Shown here: positions 13,416 to 57,658 of the stretch, in pieces | How the letters are laid out: each line of letters begins with the position of its first letter | Numbering within the stretch: position 1 is the stretch's first letter | DNA from: Biomphalaria pfeifferi | Lineage: Eukaryota | Direction of reading: 5' to 3' | NCBI GenBank assembly: GCA_030265305.1 | Contig: JASAOG010000245.1 | Span: 233,822 to 297,821, forward strand | Length of the DNA stretch: 64,000 bases | Notes under the pieces: model-generated | Told to the model about the DNA's origin: nothing | Databases searched by the model: none | The model's input: only the letters and a program-made list of their open reading frames with translations | Made by a program: the position numbers and the translations under genes

Positions 13416-15239
13416 TTTTTGGAAATTTCACAAATGTTTGTTCATTATAATTGTTAAATATTAACTATCTTGTTAATACTGTAAACTGAATGTAACTTTA
13501 TTGTGCATTGATTTATAGCTACAAAGTAAATGTAATTAAAATTTTTAAAAATTTATGTGCAATTTTTTTTTTTTTATTACTTTCAATTTTTTGTATGGTA
13601 TGGTTTTTATGGTTCAGCTATCAGTTGTTACTCCAGGCCTGTGCACTTGAAGAAAAAAAAAACAGTAAAATCCACACATACGTCATCTCCACGATGGCCG
13701 TGGCTCCTCAACCCACTGCTAGTGATCTCAGAGAACCAGAACTCCCACCAGTGCTACCTCACCCCAGCTCTTCTCCTCCGGGAGTAGAGAACATTCTGGC
13801 CAAAAGTGTGGAAATGTTGGGCCTGTACGACTCAGGTTGCTCGTTTAGCGCGGTTATCAATAAGGCGCTGATTGACCCATCAGATCTCACTGGTAGAACA
13901 GTGACGATCCCATCTATATACCGTGTCACTCCTCCGCAGGTTCAACCAAATTTAAAATTCACTTTCTTTGGGATATTGTTTGAATATTCTAATAGCTTTC
14001 AGTATTAACATCTGATAATGAACTTGTATTAATAATGCTCCAAACATGTAAAGAAATATACCGCTCCTTCTGGAAGACAATGTGAATGTGACCAGATTAG
14101 TCACCAGCTATGTAAAGAAATAATGTTTATTGTTACTTAATACATATTAATACCGGGGTACTGCCACTGCTCCATTTCTAGCATTAAACAAATATTTTGT
14201 ATTTTAATGATCTAATGAGTGACTGATTACACTTAAGTAATTATTAAAGCAACAAGACTCTTTCACATTAAAGACATTAACAAAAAGTGTATTCTTTTGA
14301 AGTTGTTCATTTTATGGATGATTTTTTTTCACTCACTGTCTTTAGAAAAACTGAAGGGTTTCATTGGTCAGCCCTTAGAAAAAGTTTTTGGAGATGGTGA
14401 TCATAAAACACCTGTAGCACATACTGCTGTTCTTGTAGACCCAACACCATTCTAGTAACTTGTATTGTCCAGTCTCCTAGTATGACAAAAGCCATAGAAA
14501 CTAGGTTGTTATGAGGTTTTGTAATGTACACAGACATTGTTATGAACTAAAACTTCTATTCCCTTATTGATAGTTACCAGTACACTTGCAATAGTCAACA
14601 GTATGGATGCACACATACACATTGGTAAGCAAAAGTAGATACGAAGTCTTTAGGTGGAATGGATAACATTTGAAGTAAAACTGAAAAATAATTTCGCATT
14701 AACTGGTAATTCTTGCTGTTTCAAGACATTACGCTTTTTTGAGAGATCATGTGGAGTTCCATAATCTGATATGGTTTTGACTTCTGGCATGACTCCTAAA
14801 TGTAACTAACTTATGCCATTACACACAAAGACCTAATTGTCACAAGTGGATAATGTCATGACACAAAAACTGAATGAGGGTACCATCTACACCAGGCATG
14901 TCAAACTCATTAAGGTGTATGGGCAGCATCAGAACTTACTATGACCTGAGGGACCGCAGCCAAAAATCAGTTGCAAAACAGCCTATATACTAGTTTTATG
15001 TAAATTAGATACAATACAATAATTAGACAAACCTTAGTTAGCTAAATTGTAATACTATTTGGTAATTTAAAATGCTTATGATTACGCATTAGTTTCTTTG
15101 TTCTGATGCTTGACATCTTTTATGGGATACAAGCTTATTAATGTCATGTTGAAGTTTGTTTTCCACTGACACTTTCATCACTGATGACAAATTTTGATGA
15201 AATAATCTCGAACGGTGAGGTGCTTTTATAGCTTTCATT

Positions 15240-16563
15240 ATGGAAAAGAACTGCTCACAGAGTTACGTGCTTGCAAACCACAAGCATTCTGGCTGCAAAT
15301 TTTCGCAATTCAACGTACCGTTCAGGATAAATAACTGTAAAATTTTGGCACAGCCATTTCTATATACTTCGATTTCAACAAAAAATCTGAATGTTATTCT
15401 ATCAGCTCTAGTTGCACATTACCAGCAGCAATTTTAGAATCAAATGAGAATGGAGATACAAACAACGTTTGCTCGTACGGAACGAAGTCACAAAAACGGT
15501 CATTGAAAGCATCTACTAACGATTCCAGGTGTAGGACATATTTACCAAATGTTGCCGCCGTATTGAATCTTTTTAGTTCCTGACACGTTGAGAAGTGAAC
15601 AAGATTTTCTCTTCATATTTGGTTTATCCACAGTCGTCATTTTGCTTGTAAGCACTTCACATGATTACACACAGTTGTGACAATTTTGTCCTTACTTTGA
15701 AGTTTCAGTTTAAGTCTTGCAGGTGACCAGTGAGATCAACTGCAATGCCAAATCCTGAGCCCATTCGTCAACATGTTCACCTTTCATGTTCAGAAACAAT
15801 ACAATTTCCTCACGCAGTGCAAAAAATCTCTTCAATACTTTATGACATGAGAGCCAGCGGACTTCTGTGTAGTAGGGAACACACTCAAATTCGTGTCCAA
15901 TGTCATCCAGAAACATTGAATATTGGCGATGATTTAAACCATGGGCACGAATAAAATTGAGAGCAACTGAAGTCGGTCTTATGACATGTTGGAACTGTAA
16001 TTGCTTTGCGCAGAATGTTTCTTGGTGAATGGTGCACTGAAAATGAGGAAATTTAAAATGAACAACAGTCTTAGTTTTTCAAGTAGCTTTGCATCAAAAC
16101 CATTTCATTTCATGGTTGGTGGGCCATCCGTTGTTAGACTAGCTAGCTTTACCAAATAGATAAATTGTACTGCAAAATCTCCTCCTCTAATTTCTCAAAA
16201 CCATCCTCGCTTGTTGTGGTGTTATACATATAATATAGCTCAAGTAGCTCCTCACGTATCTCAAAATTCCTGTCACAGGCACTTATGAATATAACCAACT
16301 CTACAATACCCGTTCATCAGTTGACTCATGGAGAGCCAATGAAAAGAATTCAAAATCTTTAATTGTTCACACAATCTGATTGACATGTCATTTATTCTAT
16401 CTGCCACAGTGTTCCTAGTTAACGCTATTTCTGTGAACGCTTTCACCTTTTCTGGACAAATTACTTTAGCAGCTTTAACGACACACTCCTTCATAAAATC
16501 ACATTCACTAAATGATTTGCTGTGGCTTGCTATTAAGTTTGACAAAATGTAGCTGGCTTTCAC
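15240..16563 (-). pseudogene. Degraded hAT-Buster-like (ZBED5/GTF2IRD2/EPM2AIP1-type) transposase remnant
   Basis: Minus-strand ORF fragments interrupted by stops. Fragment 15710-15916 reads ..YYTEVRWLSCHKVLKRFFALREEIVLFL.., matching the RWLS...VL.R...L..EI..FL hAT-Buster C-terminal signature. Confidence 0.45.
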
Positions 16564-18153: not shown

Positions 18154-19026
18154 TCACTCAGAGGCAGAGTCTTTGGGGGTAAGCTTCAAAGTCAGTTTGA
18201 GGGCCTTACGGTGGGGATTGGAGTCAGAGCCGCTGCTCTCAGCCCCTGGGGAGTGGAGCAGCGAGGTTGGAATACTAGAGAGCTGAGGTTCGAGAAGAAG
18301 ATCCTCAGGGTCAGAAATGTCCTGGATACCTGCGCTGCCTGCCCTTGAATGCTTACTGCTGCTAGTGCTGCCCCTTTTATGTCTACCTTCTTTCTCGGAG
18401 CCCGAAGAGCTCTTGTGAGACGTGCCGCCTGGGAGCAGGGGTGGCGTGGAGTGAGAAGCAGAGTGCGGGGAATAGATTGGACTCATCATGGAGGGGGAGT
18501 GGTAGGCGGACGGGTTATGCTGAGGTGTGACTGACATGGGGTGAGGTGGCGTCGAAGCATAGTTGGATTGCCGTTTGATTTTCAGTTTCAATAAGCCTTT
18601 GGCTGGGTCAATCATTTTACTCACAGCTAAACCATCTGTCGACGCTGCAGTCTGCCCAGCCAGCAGCCTTTTATGAAAATCCCCATCAGAGTCATCTGAG
18701 ATGTCTGAAAGTGGATTGAGTTTAGGAATTTTCGCAGCCGTTTTAGATTTGGGGTCGTCAAAAAGATCCGAAATATCTTCATCTTTTTCTGTATAATTGA
18801 CAGGTTTCCTTCGTCGCAAGCCCACACGACTCCTCCCTGCCTGTTCATCCTCAGCTTCTTTTCTCTTCAGTTCTTCCTCCACCTCTCTCTGCCTTCTTTG
18901 TTTTTCTTCCTCTTCCTCCTGTTTTGCTCTTTCCTTCATTTCCTGTCTCTTCTTGGCTTCTAACATTTTGCTGTATTGAATTTCCTCTTCCAACTGTGCT
19001 CGTCTAAGTTCAACTTCTTGCTGCCA
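18154..19026 (-). CDS. Terminal coding exon: Glu/Lys/Arg-rich coiled coil followed by a Ser/Pro-rich tail (WQQEVELRRAQLEEEIQYSKMLEAKKRQEMKER...RRRKPVNYTEKDEDISD...KALKLTLKLTPKDSASE*). It is either the last exon of the TAF6-like gene or a separate unidentified gene.
   Basis: Long minus-strand ORF with acceptor ttgattccag at 19027-19036 and stop at 18154-18156. The phase is compatible with the upstream exon 20707-20988. Confidence 0.55.
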   Translation of the reverse strand, partial: WQQEVELRRAQLEEEIQYSKMLEAKKRQEMKERAKQEEEEEKQRRQREVEEELKRKEAEDEQAGRSRVGLRRRKPVNYTEKDEDISDLFDDPKSKTAAKIPKLNPLSDISDDSDGDFHKRLLAGQTAASTDGLAVSKMIDPAKGLLKLKIKRQSNYASTPPHPMSVTPQHNPSAYHSPSMMSPIYSPHSASHSTPPLLPGGTSHKSSSGSEKEGRHKRGSTSSSKHSRAGSAGIQDISDPEDLLLEPQLSSIPTSLLHSPGAESSGSDSNPHRKALKLTLKLTPKDSASE

Positions 19027-19340
19027 CTGGAATCAAAGGCAATAAATCATGTATGATTAAGATCACAAAGATTAGTTGTATTTTATGACATTGAAAACAA
19101 GTAGACCCTTTTCAGAACTATCATAGTGACCCAAAGAAAAGCAAAACACTATCTTGTAGGAGCATCTTTCAAATTGTCTATAACTTTGCCTGGTTATGTA
19201 AGGTTGGCATATATGTAAAGATGACAATTGAACTGTAACATTTTATTACTATTTTAAGACATTCACACAGAATGATTGGAAACTTGACATATTTTGGAAA
19301 AAGTAAAGAAGCATTGTGCAACATACAACATCCTTAAAAA

Positions 19341-19614
19341 AGTAAAGTTCCCCTTTCAGACCTTGTGGTCTCTAGGGCAGAGGATGTAAAGGTCATCTGT
19401 TTCTGTGGGCTACGGTTAACGAGGGTGTCATGTGGCCAGCACAATGACCAACCGCCTTTTCTTTTCCCCAACTAATGTCAGGTACCCATTAGATCTGGAT
19501 GGACTCGGAGGTGCCCAAAGATCCCAAAATTAAAAAGCCCAGTCTTCACCAGGATTTAAATCTGGGACCCCCAGTTCGGAAGCCAAGTGCTTTACCACTC
19601 AGCCACCATGCCTC
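19341..19614 (-). mobile_element. tRNA-derived SINE, family 1 (full length, about 270 bp)
   Basis: Reverse complement begins ggaggcatggtggctgagtggtaaagcacttggcttccgaactgggggtcc.agatttaaatcctgg (tRNA-like A/B boxes). Conserved body ..ggtacctgacattagttgggg..gtgctggccacatgacaccctcgttaaccgtagcc..agaccacaaggtctgaaagggg. About 10 copies in the window. Confidence 0.8.
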
Positions 19615-19699
19615 CATCCTTAAAGGAGACAAGAAAAAAATGGCGAGCTCTACAACACCTGACACATTTATCTTTATGCTGAGGTTACCTAGGAGGACG

Positions 19700-20330
19700 C
19701 CTAAGAGATGCCTGCAAGTGGGATATATGGACAAAAGACATCAATGAAAGAAATGTAGAAAGAGACGCCTGCAAGTGGGATATATGGACAAAAGACATCA
19801 ATGAAAGAAAGGTAGAAAGAGACGCCTGCAAGTGGGATATATGGACAAAAGACATCAATGAAAGGAAGGTAGAAAGAGACGCCTGCAAGTGGGATATATG
19901 GACAAAAGACATCAATGAAAGGAAGGTAGAAAGAGACACCTGCAAGTGGGATATATGGACAAAAGACATCAATGAAAGAAAGGTAGAAAGAGACGCCTGC
20001 AAGTGGGATATATGGACAAAAGACATCAATGAAAGGAAGGTAGAAAGAGACGCCTGCAAGTGGGATATATGGACAAAAGACATCAATGAAAGGAAGGTAG
20101 AAAGAGATGCCTGCACGTGGGATATATGGACAAAAGACATCAATGAAAGAAAGGTAGAAAGAGACGCCTGCAAGTGGGATATATGGACAAAAGACATCAA
20201 TGAAAGGAAGGTAGAAAGAGACGCCTGCAAGTGGGATATATGGACAAAAGACATCAATGAAAGGAAGGTAGAAAGAGACGCCTGCAAGTGGGATATATGG
20301 ACAAAAGACATCAATGAAAGGAAGGTAGAA
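19700..20330. repeat. Minisatellite: about 60-bp unit (gacgcctgcaagtgggatatatggacaaaagacatcaatgaaaggaaggtagaaagaga) x about 10.5
   Basis: Read directly. Begins about 85 bp from the 5' head of the SINE at 19341-19614. Lies in an intron of the minus-strand gene. ORF-track hits 19685-20443 and 19701-20336 are repeat artefacts. Confidence 0.9.
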
Positions 20331-20706
20331 GCCCACAAGATCAGACAGCGCGGAGACTGACTGTGCATAATGATATGGCCCTCACCAAGAGTAAAAGGAC
20401 TGAGGCAGCCTTGGTCAAGAAGAAAAGGAAGAAAGCTGCACAAACTAATAGCCTTAAATCAAACTAATAGCCCTAAAAAAAAACCTTTGAAAATTTTATC
20501 TCTAAGCTCAGTCAATCTGTATAGCCTTAACAAATTCTGGCATACAACATAGCAAGCTAAAAAAAAAAAAAAAGCTCTCAAAGTTACACTTTTATATTTG
20601 TTGTAGTAAATAAAATATTGCCTGAGCTTTGCGTCTATCTAGTAAGAAAACAAACAAAACTACACGATGTTTGCTTGTATCTAGTGTAAGTAAAAAAAAC
20701 CTCTAC

Positions 20707-20988
20707 CTGGGGTTTGCTTCTATTTTTGTTGAGTTCCTTTATCTGTTCCTCCCACTCCTTCCCACGTCTCTCTTCCTCTTCTTTTAATTTTTTCAGCCGT
20801 TCCGTTTCTTCCATTTCCAAGCGTCTCCTCTTCTGTTCCTCCTCTTCTCTTTTCAATCTCTTCTTTCGCTCTTCTTCCACCTTCTTCATTTGTTCTAACA
20901 TCTGCCTAGCTCTCTGCTCTCTCTCTCTTTGTTCTCTCTCCTTCTGCTCCAGGATCTCCCTTTCTCTCCGCTCTGCCTCTAGTTTCTC
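20707..20988 (-). CDS. Exon encoding a highly charged coiled coil (EKLEAEREREILEQKEREQREREQRARQMLEQMKKVEEERKKRLKREEEEQKRRRLEMEETERLKKLKEEEERRGKEWEEQIKELNKNRSKPQ); phase 0 at both ends
   Basis: Acceptor ctgcag at 20989-20994 and donor caggtagag at 20705-20706. The phase is compatible with TAF6-like exon 23139-23309 upstream and exon 18154-19026 downstream. Confidence 0.5.
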
Positions 20989-21099
20989 CTGCAGATGTAA
21001 ACATATATAAATTTTAATTAAAAAAAAATGTTTCAGCTTAAGCTCATTACATAGATTCTTAAATCAGCTTACAGCTAACAGTCATTAAGAAGCAGGAAG

Positions 21100-21240
21100 C
21101 GTAGTTGAGAGGCCAAGTGTGCTTGAACTTGGCTTGGCCACCTAGAAAGGGGCTCGAGGTTCAACACCCGACCCGGGCAGAGTTGTGTTTACTGGACCAA
21201 AAGCGCTCTGAGCACGCTATAAGCATGAAAGTAGCGCCAT
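21100..21240 (+). mobile_element. tRNA-like SINE fragment (..tggcttggccacctagaaaggggctcgaggttcaacacccgacccgggcag..)
   Basis: T-loop-like ggttcaacaccc and the similarity of its overall layout to the family-2 SINE heads. Confidence 0.35.
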
Positions 21241-23138
21241 ATAAAAGTTACTAATAATACTAAGAAGTACAAGGAAACTGTCAAAATTGAAAATAGCCAA
21301 AACTGTGGCCTCCTTCCGTCCCAAAGCCACTATGGGTCATCTTCTAAAAATAATATGAATGCCTTTGGCATTACTTATGGTCAGAACGATGTTGCCCGCA
21401 CAACAGTTCTTCCCTCTCCACGCAGTTGATGTATTCAATCAAGTGCAAATACAGTTTGGGCTCAGCTGTGTCGCAGGCTCTGCCAGAGCGTAGAAGAAAT
21501 GTGTGCTGCAAACTGCCTAAGGGTTGCCAGCTACTGATTTTTCAGTACTCCTGAAGCCTTTCCCATGTTTGGGTAAACGTGAAAGGCAGCAGAGGTTTGA
21601 ATGCAGATTTTTCCTTCTCCTAGGTGGGTAGCCAGCATAGGCTGACAAGCCCCCCTGCCCGAAGTTTACTGGTTTAGGTGCTAGTGTTGCTCGCCTTTGC
21701 TTCTTCTCCTATAAGTGAAAACAGTTGAGCAAACACAATATCTGAGCCACATGTGAAGGCCAGGATTTGGGGTGGTTGTCACAGGCTATTTGAGACACAT
21801 GCCATACAAAGCCTTTCATCATTACCAATGTTAAAATTGAAACTAACCAAAGCAATGTTAAGAAACTCACTAAGAAAAACAAAATGACTTTATTGAAGTT
21901 CATAGACTAGAATAAATGTGACAAAATTTTCTTTTCATCCGCAACTAGTTAACATAAACATGTATAATATAAAATAAATTTGACTATCTTTTCTCTTTTT
22001 AATATTTTTTTTAAACAAAGATAAAACAGTATAAGATATTTCAATGTCTACATCTTGACATTTTTTTTTCAACTTATTCATTTTAAACTTTTTTTACAAT
22101 AAGAAAAAAAAAGTTGATAACAAAATTTATCATGAAACATAAACACATGAAACGAAACCAACTGTTAATTAGACCAAACTAAAAGGTCAATAAATGTAGC
22201 TTGTTACTAAAAATTGTTAAAATGAAAGTCAAAAAAATTGTTCAACTTCGAATCAAGGATAAAAAAGATTTACCACTCTCTCTGGTGCTTTTAGAGAAGA
22301 ATTCAGGCAACAGAATTGGTTTAGACATGAGTTACTAGTCAAGAAAACAAAACTATAATATGTGAAAGTATGTCCAAATAATAGGTCATCATGAGAGGCA
22401 AGTGTTATATGGAAAAACAAGGTCATCTGTCGTCATCAAGAAGTATGTAGAAGTCTAATTCATGGACAAGCGCTGGTTGTGAGTGTGTATGTGTTTTGTG
22501 TGTAAATGTTGTTTGTATTGCATCTATATGTTATTGTTACAGTAGTTAGACTGAGGTGGTCAATTGTAATCAAACTGAATTTCCATTTGATTGGGCCAAT
22601 AAAAATTATCTTTTCTTATCTTATTCTACTCTGCAATGCCATGTATGTGCAATACAATGTCATGTACCAGTATGCAAAATATATTAAATGTTAAGAGCCA
22701 ATGGGAAAACAATTCACCAGAAAAAAAAAAAAAAAAACTATTTCAGAAAACTGTATGCTGTGAAGAACAAAATATTTCACTGTGATTTCTAAGCTTTTTG
22801 TATTTATAATAGACACAGCCAAAAATATCTTTAGAAAGTTTCCGACATTCTAAACATGGTTCACTATCAAATTCATCTACATTGCAACAATCACAATCTA
22901 CAGCAACAAGTGTTGTAAGTGCTGGTGTACGTGAGTGGATGTGGACTAGAGTGTCACTAGAGACTATTACCAAATACAAGCAGTCTATGTGAGACCTGAC
23001 AAATTTTTAGTGTAACTACATGGTGTTTTTTTTTTTTATAAAGACTTTTTCAACCTTTACACAGTGTCAAAAGCATTCATCGCAAAAACATTTGTCTACA
23101 AACACATAAACAGAGTATGAAGACAACATGACAATCAC

Positions 23139-23309
23139 CTGTAGTTTTATTTGTTCCATTAAATTCTCCAAAAGCTCCTCCCCTCCCTTGCCAGAGTTGC
23201 TGTCTCCCAGATTCACAACCTGGTCCTTCTTCTGAGCTTTGAACACATGATGTGTCTCTACCAGAGGAAGGCAGTTAGACAGACTGTCACCAAAGTATTC
23301 ATACAGTTC
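23139..23309 (-). CDS. TAF6-like exon 12 (ELYEYFGDSLSNCLPLVETHHVFKAQKK...EELLENLMEQIKLQ)
   Basis: Acceptor tttccccag and donor caggtgatt. Aligns to the human TAF6 [23 protein letters not shown] region. Confidence 0.6.
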
Positions 23310-24029: not shown

Positions 24030-24209
24030 TGTGTATAAATCCTTGACATTTTTAGTTTCGCCACTAACCACAGCAGTTGCAATAGGCTCCTGGACATCTG
24101 CGTTCTGGTCCAAGTCCAACATCTCAGCCACTTCCTCCCTCTCTTTCACAACCTTGGTCAGGTCTTGAAATCTGCGCAAGTGTCTACAAATAACCTTCTC
24201 TGCCGCCAA
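24030..24209 (-). CDS. TAF6-like exon 11 (LAAEKVICRHLRRFQDLTKVVKEREEVAEMLDLDQNADVQEPIATAVVSGETKNVKDLYT)
   Basis: Acceptor tcctag and donor gtgagt, phase 0/0. Position is consistent with the TAF6 HEAT-repeat C-terminal region. Confidence 0.6.
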
Positions 24210-24501: not shown

Positions 24502-24627
24502 CCGAAGAGCGCCCTGAACTTTGAAAGCATCAGCTTTGTTGACTGACTCCTGCTTCTTGTCTTCAATCGCAGAACAAAGGTGTGGCCAGAAAACTGGGAG
24601 ATGAGGCAGGACCACATCTTCTACTGC
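24502..24627 (-). CDS. TAF6-like exon 10 (AVEDVVLPHLPVFWPHLCSAIEDKKQESVNKADAFKVQGALR)
   Basis: Acceptor tctgtag and donor gtgaga. Aligns to human TAF6 [23 protein letters not shown]. Confidence 0.65.
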
Positions 24628-24976: not shown

Positions 24977-25109
24977 CTTGTGACCCAGGGCTATCAATGC
25001 CATAACTGCGCCATAATGGGAATAGAAAGGCTTGTGAAGGTCTTGGAGCACTTCTCTCAGACACTTGATGGTGTTAAAACGAAGATGGTTTTGGGGGCTG
25101 TTCCAACGG
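24977..25109 (-). CDS. TAF6-like exon 9 (NRWNSPQNHLRFNTIKCLREVLQDLHKPFYSHYGAVMALIALGHK)
   Basis: Acceptor ctgcacag and donor gtaggc. SHYGAVMALIALGH aligns to human TAF6 TRYGSIAGLAELGH. Confidence 0.7.
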
Positions 25110-25194: not shown

Positions 25195-25319
25195 TTGACA
25201 ATTTCTGCTAGCAACCTGGCGGCATAGTCCCTCAGAACCCAATGATCATTCACAGAATAGATGGAGGCAGCCAGAGGTTCTAGCACACAGAATTCCACAG
25301 CTTGTATGATGGTAGATAA
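25195..25319 (-). CDS. TAF6-like exon 8 (LSTIIQAVEFCVLEPLAASIYSVNDHWVLRDYAARLLAEIV)
   Basis: NDHWVLRDYAARLLAEI aligns to human TAF6 DNHWALRDFAARLVAQI. Acceptor ttgtcag and donor gtgagt. Confidence 0.75.
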
Positions 25320-26030: not shown

Positions 26031-26283
26031 CAGGAGGCGCGGTGGCTGAGCGGTAAAGCACTAGGCTTTTGGGGTTCGAATCCTGGTAGAGACTAGGATT
26101 TTTAATTTCGGGATCTTCAGGCGCCTCTGAGTCCACCCAGCTCTAATGGGTACCTGACATTAGTTGGGGAAAAGCAAAGGCGGTCGTCGTTGTGCAGGTC
26201 ACATAACGGTAGGCCACATAAACAGATGACCTTTCATCATCTGCCCTATAGACCACAAGGTCTGAAAAGGGAACTTTACTTTT
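26031..26283 (+). mobile_element. tRNA-derived SINE family 1 (forward copy) in a TAF6-like intron
   Basis: ggaggcgcggtggctgagcggtaaagcactaggcttttggggttcgaatcctgg head plus the conserved body and tail ..agaccacaaggtctgaaaagggaactttactt. Confidence 0.8.
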
Positions 26284-27125: not shown

Positions 27126-27227
27126 ATAGGGTTTGTGCATCAGGTAAAGGGCTTTATTATGGAGCAAGGCTCTGACAGTGTTCAACAGAGTTGTCAAGTG
27201 ACCAATGTCATGAGTCATGCTTTTAAT
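27126..27227 (-). CDS. TAF6-like exon 7 (IKSMTHDIGHLTTLLNTVRALLHNKALYLMHKPY)
   Basis: Acceptor ctcctcag and donor gtaagt. Aligns to human TAF6 [31 protein letters not shown]. Confidence 0.7.
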
Positions 27228-27596: not shown

Positions 27597-27882
27597 GGGG
27601 GCGTGATGGATGAGTGGCTAAGCGCTTGGCTTTCGAACCCTGGGGTCTTGGGCTTGAATTTCTGTAAAGAATGGGATTTTGAACTTCCGGATTTTTAGGG
27701 TGCGCAAAAGTCCACCCTACTCTAATGTGTACCTGGCTTTCATTGGAGAAAAGTAAAGATGGGGTCATTGTGCTGGCCACAAGATACCCTGCTCATTAAA
27801 TGTTGGCAAAAAAAACAAACCCAGATGACCTTAACATCATCTGCCCTATAGATTGCAAAGTCTGAAAGGGGAACTTTACTTA
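27597..27882 (+). mobile_element. tRNA-derived SINE family 1 (forward copy)
   Basis: gggggcgtgatggatgagtggctaagcgcttggctttcgaaccctggggtc head, conserved body, and tail ..gattgcaaagtctgaaaggggaactttactt. Confidence 0.8.
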
Positions 27883-28413: not shown

Positions 28414-28491
28414 CCCACTTAGGACAAAGTTGATTAGATAAGGTAACACTGGCACAATATTGGGATTGGTCTTCAGATCCCCAAGTGCTTT
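28414..28491 (-). CDS. TAF6-like exon 6 (KALGDLKTNPNIVPVLPYLINFVLSG)
   Basis: Acceptor tctcaacag and donor gtaaga. Aligns to human TAF6 [26 protein letters not shown]. Confidence 0.7.
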
Positions 28492-29549: not shown

Positions 29550-29641
29550 CTTGATAGCTACAGCATTAGCACTTAGAAGAGCTTTGGTCATACAGTTGTA
29601 GTATTTTAAATGGGGAGGGGACAGCTCTCGGCTACTTTTAA
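29550..29641 (-). CDS. TAF6-like exon 5 (VKSSRELSPPHLKYYNCMTKALLSANAVAIK)
   Basis: Acceptor tttttttcag and donor gtaaat. Aligns to human TAF6 [32 protein letters not shown]. Confidence 0.65.
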
Positions 29642-30309: not shown

Positions 30310-30369
30310 CTGAATTAGAGCTGCCTCCTTGTGAGATCTTTATTATGCCTTCCACGGCAAGCCAGTGAG
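30310..30369 (-). CDS. TAF6-like exon 4 (AHWLAVEGIIKISQGGSSNS)
   Basis: AHWLAVEG aligns to human TAF6 KAHWLSIEG. Acceptor tttgtag and donor gtattt. Confidence 0.7.
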
Positions 30370-30737: not shown

Positions 30738-30888
30738 CTTTAATGGATGGTAGTCCAATCTGTTTAGGAACATAACTTCCCAGAGCCACATCCACAAGGT
30801 TCACTTCAGAGTCTTCCACACAATGTATCTCAGTGTCCTTGATGTGTCTGAATGTAAGAGGGTCTTGAGCCCCATAGCCATGCACAGG
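30738..30888 (-). CDS. TAF6-like exon 3 (PVHGYGAQDPLTFRHIKDTEIHCVEDSEVNLVDVALGSYVPKQIGLPSIK)
   Basis: Strong alignment to human TAF6 [51 protein letters not shown]. Acceptor ttacag and donor gtaatt. Confidence 0.8.
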
Positions 30889-31605: not shown

Positions 31606-31692
31606 CATCACATTCATTTCCTTAGCAGCTCTGTTGAAATCATCAATAGCAAGGCGCCTTCGCTTGGCATGTTTCATATACTGTGTTGCAAG
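31606..31692 (-). CDS. TAF6-like exon 2 (LATQYMKHAKRRRLAIDDFNRAAKEMNVM), histone-fold region
   Basis: Aligns to human TAF6 [32 protein letters not shown]. Acceptor ttgttccag and donor gtttgt. Confidence 0.7.
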
Positions 31693-31741: not shown

Positions 31742-32191
31742 TTAGACCTTTAACCTAGAAAAATTATAAACCAATCTATCTCCCCAGCACTCAAAACCCA
31801 TGACAATAAGCTCAGCAATCAATTGCTCTACCAAATAGACCACACAAAAAAAATGTTTATAAGCCGTCTCAGTACTTAGATAATCCCAATCTGCATAGCC
31901 CCATATTGTACTGGTATAACCGAGAATGAGTAGCTTTTCTGTTTTTGGAATATCAAGTAAGGTGGAGTTTAGTTCTTCGTAGAACTTTGCTATGACATCA
32001 TCTGGGTTGGTCATGGTGGGTGCGTAAGAGCTAACAATGGAACTATGATTCTTTCCATTTTGTAAAGGCAGCTTTAGGGTCATGAGCCTATCACTAATTC
32101 CTTTGGGAGGCCCGACTAGTTTGGATACTATTGATGTTCTTATGGCAAAGCTGACTCCAGATTCACGTCGTACTTCAGTGCTGCAACGCAA
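31742..32191 (-). mobile_element. Inverted 5' segment of a LINE: APE-type endonuclease N-terminal half (..[26 protein letters not shown]....IVSSYAPT..)
   Basis: Minus-strand ORF with the characteristic LINE EN motifs. Lies immediately 5' of, and in opposite orientation to, the EN-C/RT body at 32250-34905. Confidence 0.6.
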
Positions 32192-32249
32192 GAGTTGGCT
32201 CTGACTATCACATCTGGAAAGGAGTCTTAGGCAAATTTGGTATAGGTCA

Positions 32250-35200
32250 ATGCAACAGCAACGGATTATTACTACTCCAGACCTGTGCTGAACACAAGCT
32301 GCTCATATCGAACACAATATTCAGTCTTCCAATGAGAAAGCAAACTTCCTGGATGCATCCCCGCCCAAGACACTGGCACCTCATAGATTACCTCATCACC
32401 AGACAATCTGACCGTCAGGACATTCGTGTCACCAAATCTTGCTGTGGTGCAGAATGTGGAACAGACCACTGCCTCATCATCACAAAACTAAACATTCGTA
32501 TCCAACCAAAGAGACATCCGCAAAAATCAAAACCCCCTAAAAAGGCTAAACACGGCCAGCTTAGCAGATGACAAAACTGAAAAGTCACTTGCAGATGCGA
32601 TAGAGAACTGCCTCAAGTCCACCCTTCTAACTGAATCAAATGTAGATAAAAGCTGGGAATGCTTCAAAGAAGCTATCTATAGCACAGCATTAAACATACT
32701 CGGTCCTATGGAGAGAAAGCATAAGGACTGGTTTGATGAAAACAGTACTGAGATCAGAAAACTATTAGATGAAAAGCACAAGCTCCACAAATTGTATCTG
32801 AACAACCCATACTCCCAGTCCACTAAAGATGCATTCACTAACATCCGCAAAAATGTGCAAAAACAGCTACGCCAAATGCAAGATACCTGGCTTAGCAAGA
32901 AAGTGGAAACAATACAGGAATTTGCTGACAAGCACGATATGAAGAACCATGCCATAAACGAAATCTATGGACCCACAAAGTCAGGCTCATCCCCTGATGG
33001 GACAATCCTATTGACAGATAAGGAAGAAATCCTAAAACACTGGGCAGAGCACTTCGAAAAGGTTCTCAATACACCTTCCATCATAAATGAAGCGGCCATA
33101 GACAGGCTACAGCAAGTACCAATAAATGAAAAAATGGATGACCCCCCTACGCTAAAGGAAACCGATCTTGCTATTCAACAGCTCGCAAGCGGAAAAGCCC
33201 CAGGAGCTGACTCCATTCCCGCAGTGGTCTACAAAAAAAGGTGGATTAGCCCTGATTGAAAGACTTCATAAGCTCTTCTTAATTATGTGGGAAAAAGAGT
33301 CAATACCACAAGACTTTAAAGATGCCACAATTGTTCATTTATACAAGCGAAAAGGTAACCGCCAGATCTGCGACAACCACAGAGGAATATCTCTTCTCTC
33401 GATTGCTGGGAAAATCCTTGCACGCATCCTACTAAATCAGCTCATGCAACACATAGAATATGGTCTACTAACAGAAAGCCAGTGCGGCTTCAGAAAAGAG
33501 CGTGGATCCATTGACATGATCTTTGCAGCAAGGCAGCTCCAGGAAAAATGCCAAGAACAAAATGCTGTTCCTGTTCTCAATATACGTTGACTTAACAAAG
33601 GCATTGGACACTGTTAGCAGAGAAGGACTCTGGAAGATCATGTCAAAGTATGGCTGTCCACAAAAATTCATAACCATGGTGAGACTATTTCATGATGGCA
33701 TGAAGGCTCGTGTCCAAGAAAGTGGAGAATCATCAGAGCCCTTCGAAGTATCAAACGGGGTAAAACAAGGCTGTGTCCTAGCACCTACACTGTTCAGTAT
33801 CATATTCTCCGCTATGCTGACAGATGCATTCACAAATAGAGAAAACAATGGGATAAATATATCATACAGATTTGATGGTGGCCTATTCAACCCGAGGCGG
33901 ATTAAAGCAAAATCAAAAACAAATACAGCAGTAATCAGAGACTTGCTATTTGCTGACGACTGTGCCCTAAATGCTTGCTCTGCTAACGATCTGCAGAGCA
34001 TTGTCAGTGACTTCTCAAGAGCATGCACAGACTTTGGCCTTACCATCAATACGAACAAGACGGAAGTCTTATATCTACCTGCTCCTGGGAAAACCTACTC
34101 GGATCCAAGCAGGAAATAAACGCAGTGGACAAATTCACATATCTTGGCAGCACACTCTCCAGAAATGGAAAAATCGATAGTGAAATCGACCTGCGTATCG
34201 CCAAGGCCAGTGCATCCTATGGCAGACTGTCTACAAATGTCTGGAACAGACGTGGTATCACCACAAACACAAAGCTAGGGATCTATAGAGCCGTCATCCT
34301 CCCCACATTGCTCTATGCCCCAGAAACATGGACAGTGTACAGTAAACATGCAAAGAAACTAAACCACTTCCACATGACATGTCTGAGAAAAATACTAAAT
34401 GTCAAATGGCAAGACAAAATACCAGATACAGAAGTCCTTCGAAGAGTGTGCCTGCAAAGCATCCACACAATCCTGATGCAGTCCCAGCTGCGATGGGCAG
34501 GTCACGTCTACAGAATGGAAGACCACCGCATCCCTAAACGACTCTTGCATGGCCAACTAAGCGAAGGAAATCGCTAGCAAGGTGGTCAAAGTAAGCGCTT
34601 CAGGGACACACTCAAAGCTTCTCTGAAGGCGTTCAGCATAGACCCAGGCACCTGGGAGACAGAGGCACATGACAGAGCATCATGGTGTCGCACTGTGAAA
34701 ACTGGCGCACAGGTTGCTGAGGAAAAAAGAACAACGCTGGCAGAAGAAAAACGCCAGAAAAGAAAAGCAAGACAAACGACACTAGCTCCAGCTGGAATAA
34801 CCTGCCAAGTGTGCGGCCGAACATTCCGGGCTCATATAGGTCTCACCAGCCACATGAGGAGGCATAAGACCCCAGTGCAAAGCCCTCAGCCCCCTGGATG
34901 ACAAAGTGGTCATCATCGAACCTCGATGGACGAACTATACACTGGTATAACACCTAACATTTTTACATAATAATAATTTAATTTATATAGCCCTGTTCAC
35001 AAACATAAAATAGGCTCTAACATGGACATGAGAGCTAAAATGGAAAACTATTCTAAGTATGTTTTGCATAGATCTTAAAGTTCTACTTAAATGTAATGAA
35101 ACATGTGGTTTATCTGAGCTCAATGGGGAGAAAGTTCCAAACCTTTGCTCCATGAAATGATCAAGGCCGCAAATCATAACTTTTAAGAGAAAAATACTGT

Positions 35201-35352: not shown

Positions 35353-35520
35353 CATGACAACTTGTCTAACTTGGTAGCTAGCATCTTCTCCTAACACAAC
35401 CGCTGCTTCATGCGGTATAGGCGACAACTGAGCCGACTCTGCCATGGTATTGATGGATGCTGCTGTAAACACTGCATAGGTCTTTTCCTCCATTTGATGG
35501 CGTCGTTCTTCAGAGGTCAT
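35353..35520 (-). CDS. TAF6-like exon 1 with start codon (MTSEERRHQMEEKTYAVFTAASINTMAESAQLSPIPHEAAVVLGEDASYQVRQVVM)
   Basis: ATG at 35518-35520 (minus) and donor gtgagt. Aligns to the human TAF6 N-terminus ..[43 protein letters not shown] (histone-fold). Confidence 0.75.
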
Positions 35521-56505: not shown

Positions 56506-56819
56506 ATATATGTATATTCAAATTCGAGCTTCAAAGGTAGCCGAGTAGCCCGTGAGTCTCAGCGGCATATACTAAAAACAATAATACAAATAAAATATGC
56601 ATATAGTGATTACTTGTACTACGTTGTACACATGTAGAGGCGGCCTTAGCAGTAAGCAAGGCCCGGGCGAGTTTCATATCCAAACATCCCTATAGAATAA
56701 ACCATACAGAGGCGGCTTAGTAAGGCAACCTCGGTGGGCCCCGCGATAGCAGAATTTATTTTCATCTTGTTTGTTGATTTAAGGTCACTTAATTAATATT
56801 AGATGGCTGCCTGGTCGTG

Positions 56820-57505
56820 CCACAGTATTTGGTTTCTTTGAAATGCCACTGTATTTGGTTTCTTTGAAATGCCACAGTATTTGGTTTCTTTGAAATGCCA
56901 CTGTATTTGGTTTCTTTAAAATGCCACTATATTTGGTTTCTTTGAAATGCCACAGTATTTGATTTCTTTGAAATGCCACTGTATTTGGTTTCTTTGAAAT
57001 GCCACTGTATTTGGTTTCTTTGAAATGCCACTGTATTTGGTTTCTTTGAAATGCCACTGTATTTGGTTTCTTTGAAATGCCACTGTATTTGGTTTCTTTG
57101 AAATGCCACAGTATTTGGTTTTTTTTGAAATGCCACTGTATTTGGTTTCTTTGAAAAGCCACAGTATTTGGTTTCTTTGAAATGCCACTGTATTTGGTTT
57201 CTTTGAAATGCCACTGTATTTGGTTTCTTTGAAATGCCACTGTATTTGGTTTCTTTGAAATGCCACTGTATTTGGTTTCTTTGAAATGCCACTGTATTTG
57301 GTTTCTTTGAAATGCCACTGTATTTGGTTTTTTTGAAATGCCACAGTATTTGGTTTCTTTGAAATGCCACTGTATTTGGTTTCTTTGAAATGCCACAGTA
57401 TTTGGTTTCTTTGAAATGCCACTGTATTTGGTTTCTTTAAAATGCCACAGTATTTGGTATCTTTGAAATGCCACTGTATTTGGTTTCTTTGAAATGCCAC
57501 TGTTT
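56820..57505. repeat. Minisatellite: 26-bp unit ccac(t/a)gtatttggtttctttgaaatg x about 26, starting immediately after a 20-bp SINE family-2 head (gatggctgcctggtcgtgc). Lies about 150 bp upstream of the pyruvate carboxylase start codon.
   Basis: Read directly. ORF-track hits 56785-57525, 56916-57500 and 56927-57370 are repeat artefacts. Confidence 0.9.
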
Positions 57506-57658
57506 GTTTGTTTCATGTTTAACAAATTGAAAAGATAAATATGTGTAAATAAATAATAATGAAACAGATTTTAAAAAAAAATTCTTTTCAGTTCTTGAAA
57601 TTTTACATGTGACTTTTACTATTGTGGATTCAGCTTTGGAAGCTAGGTGCACACAGCA
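57506..57658 (+). promoter_or_regulatory. PC: Putative proximal promoter / 5'UTR of the pyruvate carboxylase gene (by position only)
   Basis: Immediately upstream of the ATG at 57659. There may be upstream non-coding exons that cannot be seen here. Confidence 0.25.

Follow-up and report, generated by a model that had tools for sequence, protein, structure and literature searches.

The question raised by positions 18154 to 23309 of a 64,000-nucleotide stretch of the Biomphalaria pfeifferi genome (contig JASAOG010000245.1 of assembly GCA_030265305.1, positions 233,822 to 297,821 of the forward strand; the whole stretch is called the window here) is where one gene ends and whether another begins. 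A TAF6-like gene approaches this interval on the minus strand, and a sequence-only reading of the window had proposed either that it continues into exons encoding a charged coiled coil and a Ser/Pro-rich tail or that those exons belong to an unrecognised neighbouring or nested gene. Judged from sequence, the interval almost certainly holds coding exons 12, 13 and 14 (23309-23139, 20988-20707 and 19026-18154, minus strand) of a single 14-exon gene, TAF6L, and the locus as a whole is very probably best explained as one TAF6L gene with a mollusc-specific C-terminal extension. TAF6L is the SAGA-specific paralog of TAF6 and a core subunit of the SAGA transcription co-activator.

The gene model itself is straightforward. 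Fourteen coding exons with GT-AG junctions, running from 35520 to 18154 on the minus strand, give a coding sequence of 2628 nt that translates exactly to 875 amino acids. The product is 100% identical to a deposited B. pfeifferi protein, KAK0042289.1, which maps onto the minus strand in 14 pieces and which, as the best match to the whole-gene draft, carries the annotation TAF6-like RNA polymerase II p300/CBP-associated factor-associated factor 65 kDa subunit 6L; the gene model is therefore already public. The same 875-residue structure is found in B. glabrata, in RefSeq XP_055878632.1 and XP_055878633.1 and in two GenBank annotations. The coding region begins in exon 1 (35353-35520), with the start codon and the beginning of the histone fold, and continues through exon 2 (31606-31692), exon 3 (30738-30888), exon 4 (30310-30369, encoding AHWLAVEG), exon 5 (29550-29641), exon 6 (28414-28491), exon 7 (27126-27227), exon 8 (25195-25319, encoding NDHWVLRDYAARL), exon 9 (24977-25109), exon 10 (24502-24627) and exon 11 (24030-24209, RLAAEKV...KDLYT), the last of these specifying a long HEAT helix, residues 360-404 in the AlphaFold2 model, and a loop. 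Exon 12 (23139-23309; 171 nt, 57 codons, residues 435-491) follows the acceptor ...ccccag/GAA and ends at the donor CAG/gtgatt; exon 13 (20707-20988; 282 nt, 94 codons, residues 492-585) lies between ctgcag/GAG and CAG/gtagag; and exon 14 (18154-19026; 873 nt, 290 codons plus the TGA stop, residues 586-875) follows attccag/TGG. All three are in phase 0. Much of what had been read from the letters alone thus stands: the position and phase of these three exons, the count of twelve exons between 35520 and 23139, the gtgatt donor at which the twelfth ends in phase 0, and the continuation of the TAF6-like gene into the charged and S/P-rich exons, which are exons 13 and 14 of the deposited protein.

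That the gene is TAF6L and not canonical TAF6 follows from several features. Both domains of the family are present, the TAF histone fold (Pfam PF02969, E 3.1e-14, residues 17-78) and the TAF6_C HEAT domain (PF07571, E 2.5e-39, residues 160-342), the latter predicted as helical repeats with an AlphaFold2 per-residue confidence (pLDDT) of 85-97. In this family the N-terminal histone fold pairs with TAF9. Among solved structures, the top match is human TAF6L (7ktr_F; E 4.3e-76, 260 bits), in a single colinear stretch aligning residues 9-381 of the snail protein with residues 3-370 of the human one, whereas human TAF6 matches with 138 bits and in two stretches. The TAF6 alignment of the HEAT domain is shifted by +54 (157-375 against 211-429); the TAF6L alignment shows no change of offset. 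According to a 2026 paper on the human SAGA structure, the linker from the TAF5L-binding strands to the first HEAT helix is about 50 residues shorter in TAF6L than in TAF6, and this is specific to TAF6L (PMC12998509). The offset against TAF6, and its absence against TAF6L, thus indicate that the snail protein has the short, TAF6L-type linker between fold and HEAT domain. Canonical TAF6, the TFIID subunit, has a homologous histone fold and HEAT domain; it differs in the longer linker, consistent with the 54-residue offset in its numbering, and in its last HEAT repeat, for which a clash with SF3B3 would be expected (PMC12998509). Human TAF6L (PAF65-alpha; PDB 7KTR, 8H7G, 9RDK) shares with the snail protein the N-terminal histone fold, the short linker, the TAF6_C HEAT repeats and the ELY.FFGDSL motif of the last helix, and nearly all database relatives that bear a name are annotated as TAF6L. 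The gene thus bears all the sequence hallmarks of the SAGA core subunit TAF6L.

The match of exon 12 to TAF6 had been considered weak, and it was thought that the exon might belong to whichever gene owned the downstream exons. This is not the case. The exon opens with the last HEAT helix motif of TAF6L, ELYEYFGDSLSNCL (23309-23268), which includes ELYEYFGDSL and whose human counterpart is ELYAFFGDSLATRF. In human TAF6L this motif is the last HEAT helix, and its tip, DSLATRF, accounts for much of the interface with the SF3B3/SF3B5 splicing module in SAGA (PMC12998509). Four of its residues (Y437, G441, D442 and L444) are at least 90% conserved in 34 TAF6L sequences from cnidarians to mammals; the snail tip is identical to human at DSL and differs in the last four residues. 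AlphaFold2 predicts a helix at residues 429-445, with a mean pLDDT of 92 for residues 431-440 and 85 for 441-450. Beyond the helix, the exon carries a conserved lophotrochozoan segment, VFK..KK..V.LGD...KSGEELL..LMEQIKLQ, and the long charged helix already begins within it, from 23183. Exon 12 is thus core TAF6L sequence, with a candidate SF3B3/SF3B5-docking helix, a linker and the start of the charged helix.

If exon 12 belongs to TAF6L, the remaining issue is whether the gene stops there. The case for two genes comes from an older B. glabrata annotation, in which the locus is split. UniProt A0A2C9L9F4 is a 514-residue TAF6L that reads through the exon-12 donor, ends in ...EQIKLQVIVALSSYSVYAFVDKCHCDECF and meets a stop 23 codons past that donor; the corresponding segment in the window is 23067-23138 on the minus strand (VIVMLSSYSVYVFVDKCFCDECF and a stop). 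A second entry, A0A2C9KH78, is an uncharacterised protein of 355 residues that starts at a methionine internal to exon 13 (MLEQMKK). By this account, TAF6L would end at 23067 and a coiled-coil and S/P-rich gene would start in or before exon 13, and the Bradybaena and Bulinus models are likewise broken in this region. The newer RefSeq and GenBank models, however, merge both parts, and the comparison of the window with the ortholog locus of B. glabrata (OX365775.1) agrees with the merged structure. The two loci are colinear, with identical splice sites for exons 12-14; exons are about 97.6% identical without indels, and introns about 95% identical with many. The substitutions are 5 synonymous and 0 non-synonymous in exon 12, 4 and 0 in exon 13, and 11 and 7 in exon 14 (omega 0.18). 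The absence of indels and the mostly synonymous changes indicate that these exons are more than chance open reading frames (ORFs). Both substitutions in the read-through peptide, in contrast, are non-synonymous (2/2), the GT donor of exon 12 and the AG acceptor of exon 13 are conserved, and the frame is continuous from one exon to the next. The segment 23067-23138 is thus most likely intronic. Moreover, coding conservation in exon 13 reaches the acceptor, beginning 29 codons upstream of the proposed start methionine, in Lymnaea, Physella, Bulinus and Aplysia.

Evidence from other molluscs bears on the same point from a different direction. Two bivalve Logan contigs of about 2.6 kb, from SRR24489192 (802 amino acids) and SRR19746220 (759 amino acids), each carry an ORF that runs without interruption from the core through a homologous tail; they must be transcripts, because an intron-free ORF of such size comes from a gene with ten or more introns. 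In the genome of the scallop Mizuhopecten, a single terminal exon encodes residues 376-758, from the last HEAT repeats and the YDYFGDSL helix through the charged region to the end of the tail, so that in this species two genes are physically excluded. A tail-only profile, built from the post-helix tails of 11 molluscs and run against 1.84 billion representative proteins, gave 18 matches, all of them mollusc TAF6L C-termini, with the ..Y.YFGDSL motif of TAF6L upstream, or fragments of last-exon ORFs; neither a stand-alone homolog nor another family was found for the tail in this collection. A database search with the tail, which the sequence-only reading had recommended, thus leads back to TAF6L. 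An earlier tail search of a 5.8-billion-protein collection had returned 8 mollusc fragments only and had missed the identical protein. Indeed, the word-indexed protein search twice missed KAK0042289.1 despite 100% identity to the query, and its negatives on low-complexity queries are not to be trusted. Of the two marks of an independent gene, a start codon of its own at the onset of conserved coding sequence and stand-alone homologs, neither was found. We therefore consider a pair of genes, 514-residue TAF6L and coiled-coil neighbour, extremely improbable, and the idea of a neighbouring or nested gene is ruled out by the deposited model, the bivalve ORFs, the constraint seen against B. glabrata, the tail profile and the scallop exon taken together.

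The single-gene structure is not free of contrary evidence. The transcript support comes from bivalve contigs and none of it from Biomphalaria itself; a search with the exon 11-14 peptide for Biomphalaria contigs across the exon 12-13 junction gave no matches, probably an artefact of low complexity or of the word index; and the older B. glabrata split into 514 and 355 residues leaves room for a short isoform. The last point deserves attention, since one gene could make two products: retention of intron 12, or early polyadenylation, would yield a tail-less TAF6L of about 514 residues beside the 875-residue form, with the tail as a regulated, optional module. A length of about 514 residues is comparable to that of TAF6L in other animals, the old model may have had transcript support, and intron 12 holds an ATTAAA at 22003 and an AATAAA at 21894. 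An A-rich run about 80 nt past the read-through stop could also have yielded internally primed complementary DNAs. Even the closest of the hexamers, however, lies over 1 kb beyond that stop. No coding constraint is seen in the read-through codons, and the scallop, with no intron at this place, cannot make such an isoform by intron retention. Within intron 12, no conserved block rises above the background of about 95% identity to B. glabrata, a pair of species too close for a strong test. A second, tail-less isoform is decidedly unlikely.

What, then, is the extension? Measured from the start of the last HEAT helix to the end, the snail protein has 441 residues. The tail after that helix is about 185-200 residues in deuterostomes and cnidarians, 230-260 in annelids and 244-497 in molluscs, and TAF6L orthologs of 760-930 residues with a homologous tail are annotated in many gastropods, bivalves and cephalopods. 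With an identical protein on deposit and long-tailed orthologs annotated across molluscs, the C-terminal module is no novelty as far as the databases are concerned. The mollusc orthologs compared (B. glabrata XP_055878632.1, Aplysia, Physella, Lymnaea, Haliotis, Mizuhopecten, Mytilus and Octopus) share the core, the linker, the charged helix, an acidic patch, GIKLKIK, a KHKRK patch, SDPED and a terminal ESSGSD..KLKLKV; among molluscs, the charged stretch varies widely in length and gives way to Q/T repeats in Nucella, and the scallop lacks introns in the region. The human, other deuterostome and cnidarian proteins differ from the snail's in an Arg-rich tail with the ending D[VI]F...F.F..G.Q...GKR...L.L and without a charged helix; the snail protein has such a helix, E/K/R-rich and about 165 residues long, and its C-terminal end is different. 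When mollusc and non-mollusc TAF6L tails were compared by hhalign, only the acidic-plus-GIKL.I.KR motif aligned, and this through the annelid rows (probability 81%, E 1.2e-5). A homology between the mollusc KLKLKV end and the deuterostome GKRK...L.L end, suspected by eye, was not supported in this profile-profile comparison. On these alignments, the extension is mollusc-specific and partly shared with annelids. The duplication that gave TAF6 and TAF6L has been placed at the base of animals (PMC6672047), and the mollusc tail is thus a later elaboration. Full-text literature searches found no papers on TAF6L with either molluscs or Biomphalaria, and the C-terminal extension seems to be undescribed. 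It is nonetheless a lineage-specific, disordered, low-complexity addition to a well-known protein and not a new kind of system.

Gene structure has also changed in this part of the gene. The first ten intron positions are common to Mizuhopecten and Biomphalaria, and Biomphalaria has three extra introns (11, 12 and 13) where the scallop has one exon (14376-15524 of the Mizuhopecten locus), so that either the gastropod line has gained introns or the bivalve line has lost them.

After a linker, the extension is dominated by charge. Residues 492-667 are 61% E, K and R and 17% hydrophobic, with a net charge near zero, and AlphaFold2 models two long helices, at 477-578 and 586-647 (102 and 62 residues), with a pLDDT of about 65-80. 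The first ends at residue 578 (position 20728); the break, at NKNRSKPQ, coincides with the junction of exons 13 and 14, and the second helix occupies 18841-19026 on the minus strand, with a pLDDT of about 73-80. A charged helix of approximately 130 residues had been called from the letters; the charged stretch is real, and the modelled helices span about 165 residues. E/K/R-rich single alpha-helix domains act as semi-rigid spacers and have often been called coiled coils at first, INCENP being an example (PMC4571873), and the KER helix of CAF-1 also binds DNA (PMC10335832). The snail region is like the INCENP coil and the CAF-1 KER in being dominated by E, K and R, in its long, uninterrupted predicted helices, and in linking the folded domain of a chromatin protein to a functional tail. 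It has no sequence homology to either, its length is poorly conserved between species, and a monomeric state, or any binding of DNA, is putative here.

An alternative is that the region is a true coiled coil, dimeric or multimeric, pairing with another coiled-coil protein or with a second TAF6L. The modelled helicity would suit this as well, and in the exon-13 helix there is a weak heptad bias, with hydrophobic residues at two adjacent heptad positions (5 and 4 of 15). The second helix has no such signal, the length is not conserved, and a hydrophobic content of 17% against 61% E/K/R is typical of the single alpha-helix domains that, like INCENP, were once taken for coiled coils (PMC4571873). 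Human SAGA structures (PDB 7KTR), moreover, contain one TAF6L copy. A multimeric coiled coil is thus rather unlikely, and the single-alpha-helix spacer is favoured, because the composition and the predicted continuous helices resemble those of E/K/R single alpha-helix domains.

The linker ahead of the helices is common to molluscs and annelids (LP....VFK..KK..V.LGD...KSGEELL..LMEQ), and the part beyond them, about 230 residues, is S/P-rich and disordered, with a pLDDT below 50. Within it are conserved islands. The basic motif RRRKPVNYTE (residues 656-665; 18787-18816, minus strand), followed by the acidic KDEDISDLFDD, is conserved in heterobranch gastropods and has weaker basic and acidic counterparts in other molluscs; an acidic patch and SDISDDSD come after it. 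The most widely conserved motif of the tail, in molluscs and annelids alike, is AVSKMIDPAKGLLKLKIKRQ (residues 719-738; 18568-18627, minus strand; consensus AVS..DP.KGLLKLKIKRQ), a predicted beta-hairpin with strands at 720-725 and 730-735 and low pLDDT; it is the motif to which the hhalign match with non-mollusc tails is confined. Further islands are KHKR, DISDPED and the terminal SPGAESSGSDSNPHRKALKLTLKLTPK (ESSGSDS..KLTLKLTPK); the last belongs to the C-terminal motif SPGAESSGSDSNPHRKALKLTLKLTPKDSASE (residues 844-875; 18157-18252, minus strand), which alignment and profile matches show to be conserved across Mollusca. Exon 14 thus holds everything that had been recognised there from the letters: the RRRKPVNYTE motif, an acidic stretch rich in S and D, the S/P-rich tail and a stop codon.

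How such a protein might work can be sketched by analogy. As in other animals, the histone fold and HEAT domain would form the core of SAGA. The extension would emerge at the periphery of the complex, near the histone acetyltransferase and splicing modules, because it starts right after the helix that docks SF3B3/SF3B5 (PMC12998509). The charged helix may then serve as a semi-rigid spacer of the single-alpha-helix type, holding a motif-bearing tail away from the SAGA core or the peripheral docking site, and the tail probably carries basic patches of the nuclear-localisation type, acidic serines of the CK2 type, a partner-binding hairpin, and motifs that bind partners or nucleic acid. This spacer and tether mechanism is put forward tentatively, with the balance somewhat against it. 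Several observations weigh against a function of this kind. Scored strictly, the charged stretch has between 3 and 117 residues depending on the species: Littorina and Batillaria have almost none of it, Gigantopelta and Mytilus have a much longer one, and Nucella has Q/T repeats in its place. Both the variation in length and the Nucella replacement point to a charged region under weak constraint, and the poor conservation of length argues that this applies to the helix itself. The AlphaFold2 confidence in the helices is moderate, and a monomer model cannot separate a single alpha-helix from a coiled coil. The 441-residue tail matches no Pfam family and has only chance-level matches in the PDB. 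A bolder proposal appears unlikely: that the mollusc tail took the place of the ancestral metazoan C-terminus of TAF6L as a functional SAGA module specific to this lineage, and that it could be switched off through a short, intron-12-retaining isoform.

The introns of the gene and the rest of the window hold a number of repeats. About 3 kb of intron 1 (31920-34941) has no counterpart in the B. glabrata ortholog; the block carries reverse-transcriptase ORFs on the plus strand (RVT_1, 33168-34119), and a retroelement-like ORF lies just outside the block, at 32191-31742 on the minus strand. The block looks like a lineage-specific insertion of a retroelement of the type without long terminal repeats, and it brings the span of the gene to about 17.4 kb here, against about 14.6 kb in B. 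glabrata. Intron 13 contains a tandem array of 11 copies of a 57-bp unit, with 97% identity (19703-20330); since 57 is a multiple of 3, the repeat mechanically generates minus-strand ORFs of 252 and 211 amino acids. Introns 12 and 13 have no long ORFs other than those stemming from this repeat, and the idea of a nested or second gene within them was rejected. About 512 nt of the array do not align to B. glabrata; the two species thus differ in copy number. The same intron holds an element resembling a short interspersed element (SINE), with a tRNA-like head (GGCTGAGTGGTAAAGCACTTGGCTTCC..., 19340-19640), and cross-matches in the two-species BLAST show diverged SINE-like copies in introns 6 and 7 (26072-26281 and 27668-27881). 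ARAGORN found no tRNA genes in the window, the SINE-like element included, and Rfam at the gathering threshold found no RNA genes in 16000-37000, with none detected hidden in the introns. Away from the gene, an intact ORF of 765 amino acids on the minus strand (29-2326), with no Pfam match, could encode a mobile-element protein, either domesticated or active until recently, or could represent a gene without introns. At 56785-57525, also on the minus strand, long ORFs in three overlapping frames arise from another tandem repeat (peptide unit ...KETKYSGISKKPNTVAFQRNQIQWHF...), which is probably a satellite and not a gene.

The combination of a low-complexity charged exon with repeat-laden introns is the reason that gene predictors break at this locus. 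In Bulinus, the TAF6L model is truncated at 658 amino acids; in Bradybaena, it is split into a 535-residue core and a 336-residue chimera that joins a fragment of MCM to the tail. For Biomphalaria, the conflict between models can be settled: the merged protein of 875 residues is right, and the older division into 514 and 355 residues is unsupported. The main value of this work is accordingly for annotation quality, the finding being correct, ordinary and already annotated. For the family, what it brings out is that mollusc TAF6L carries a post-HEAT tail about twice as long as that of other animals, and that this tail directly follows the helix on which, in SAGA, the splicing module docks.

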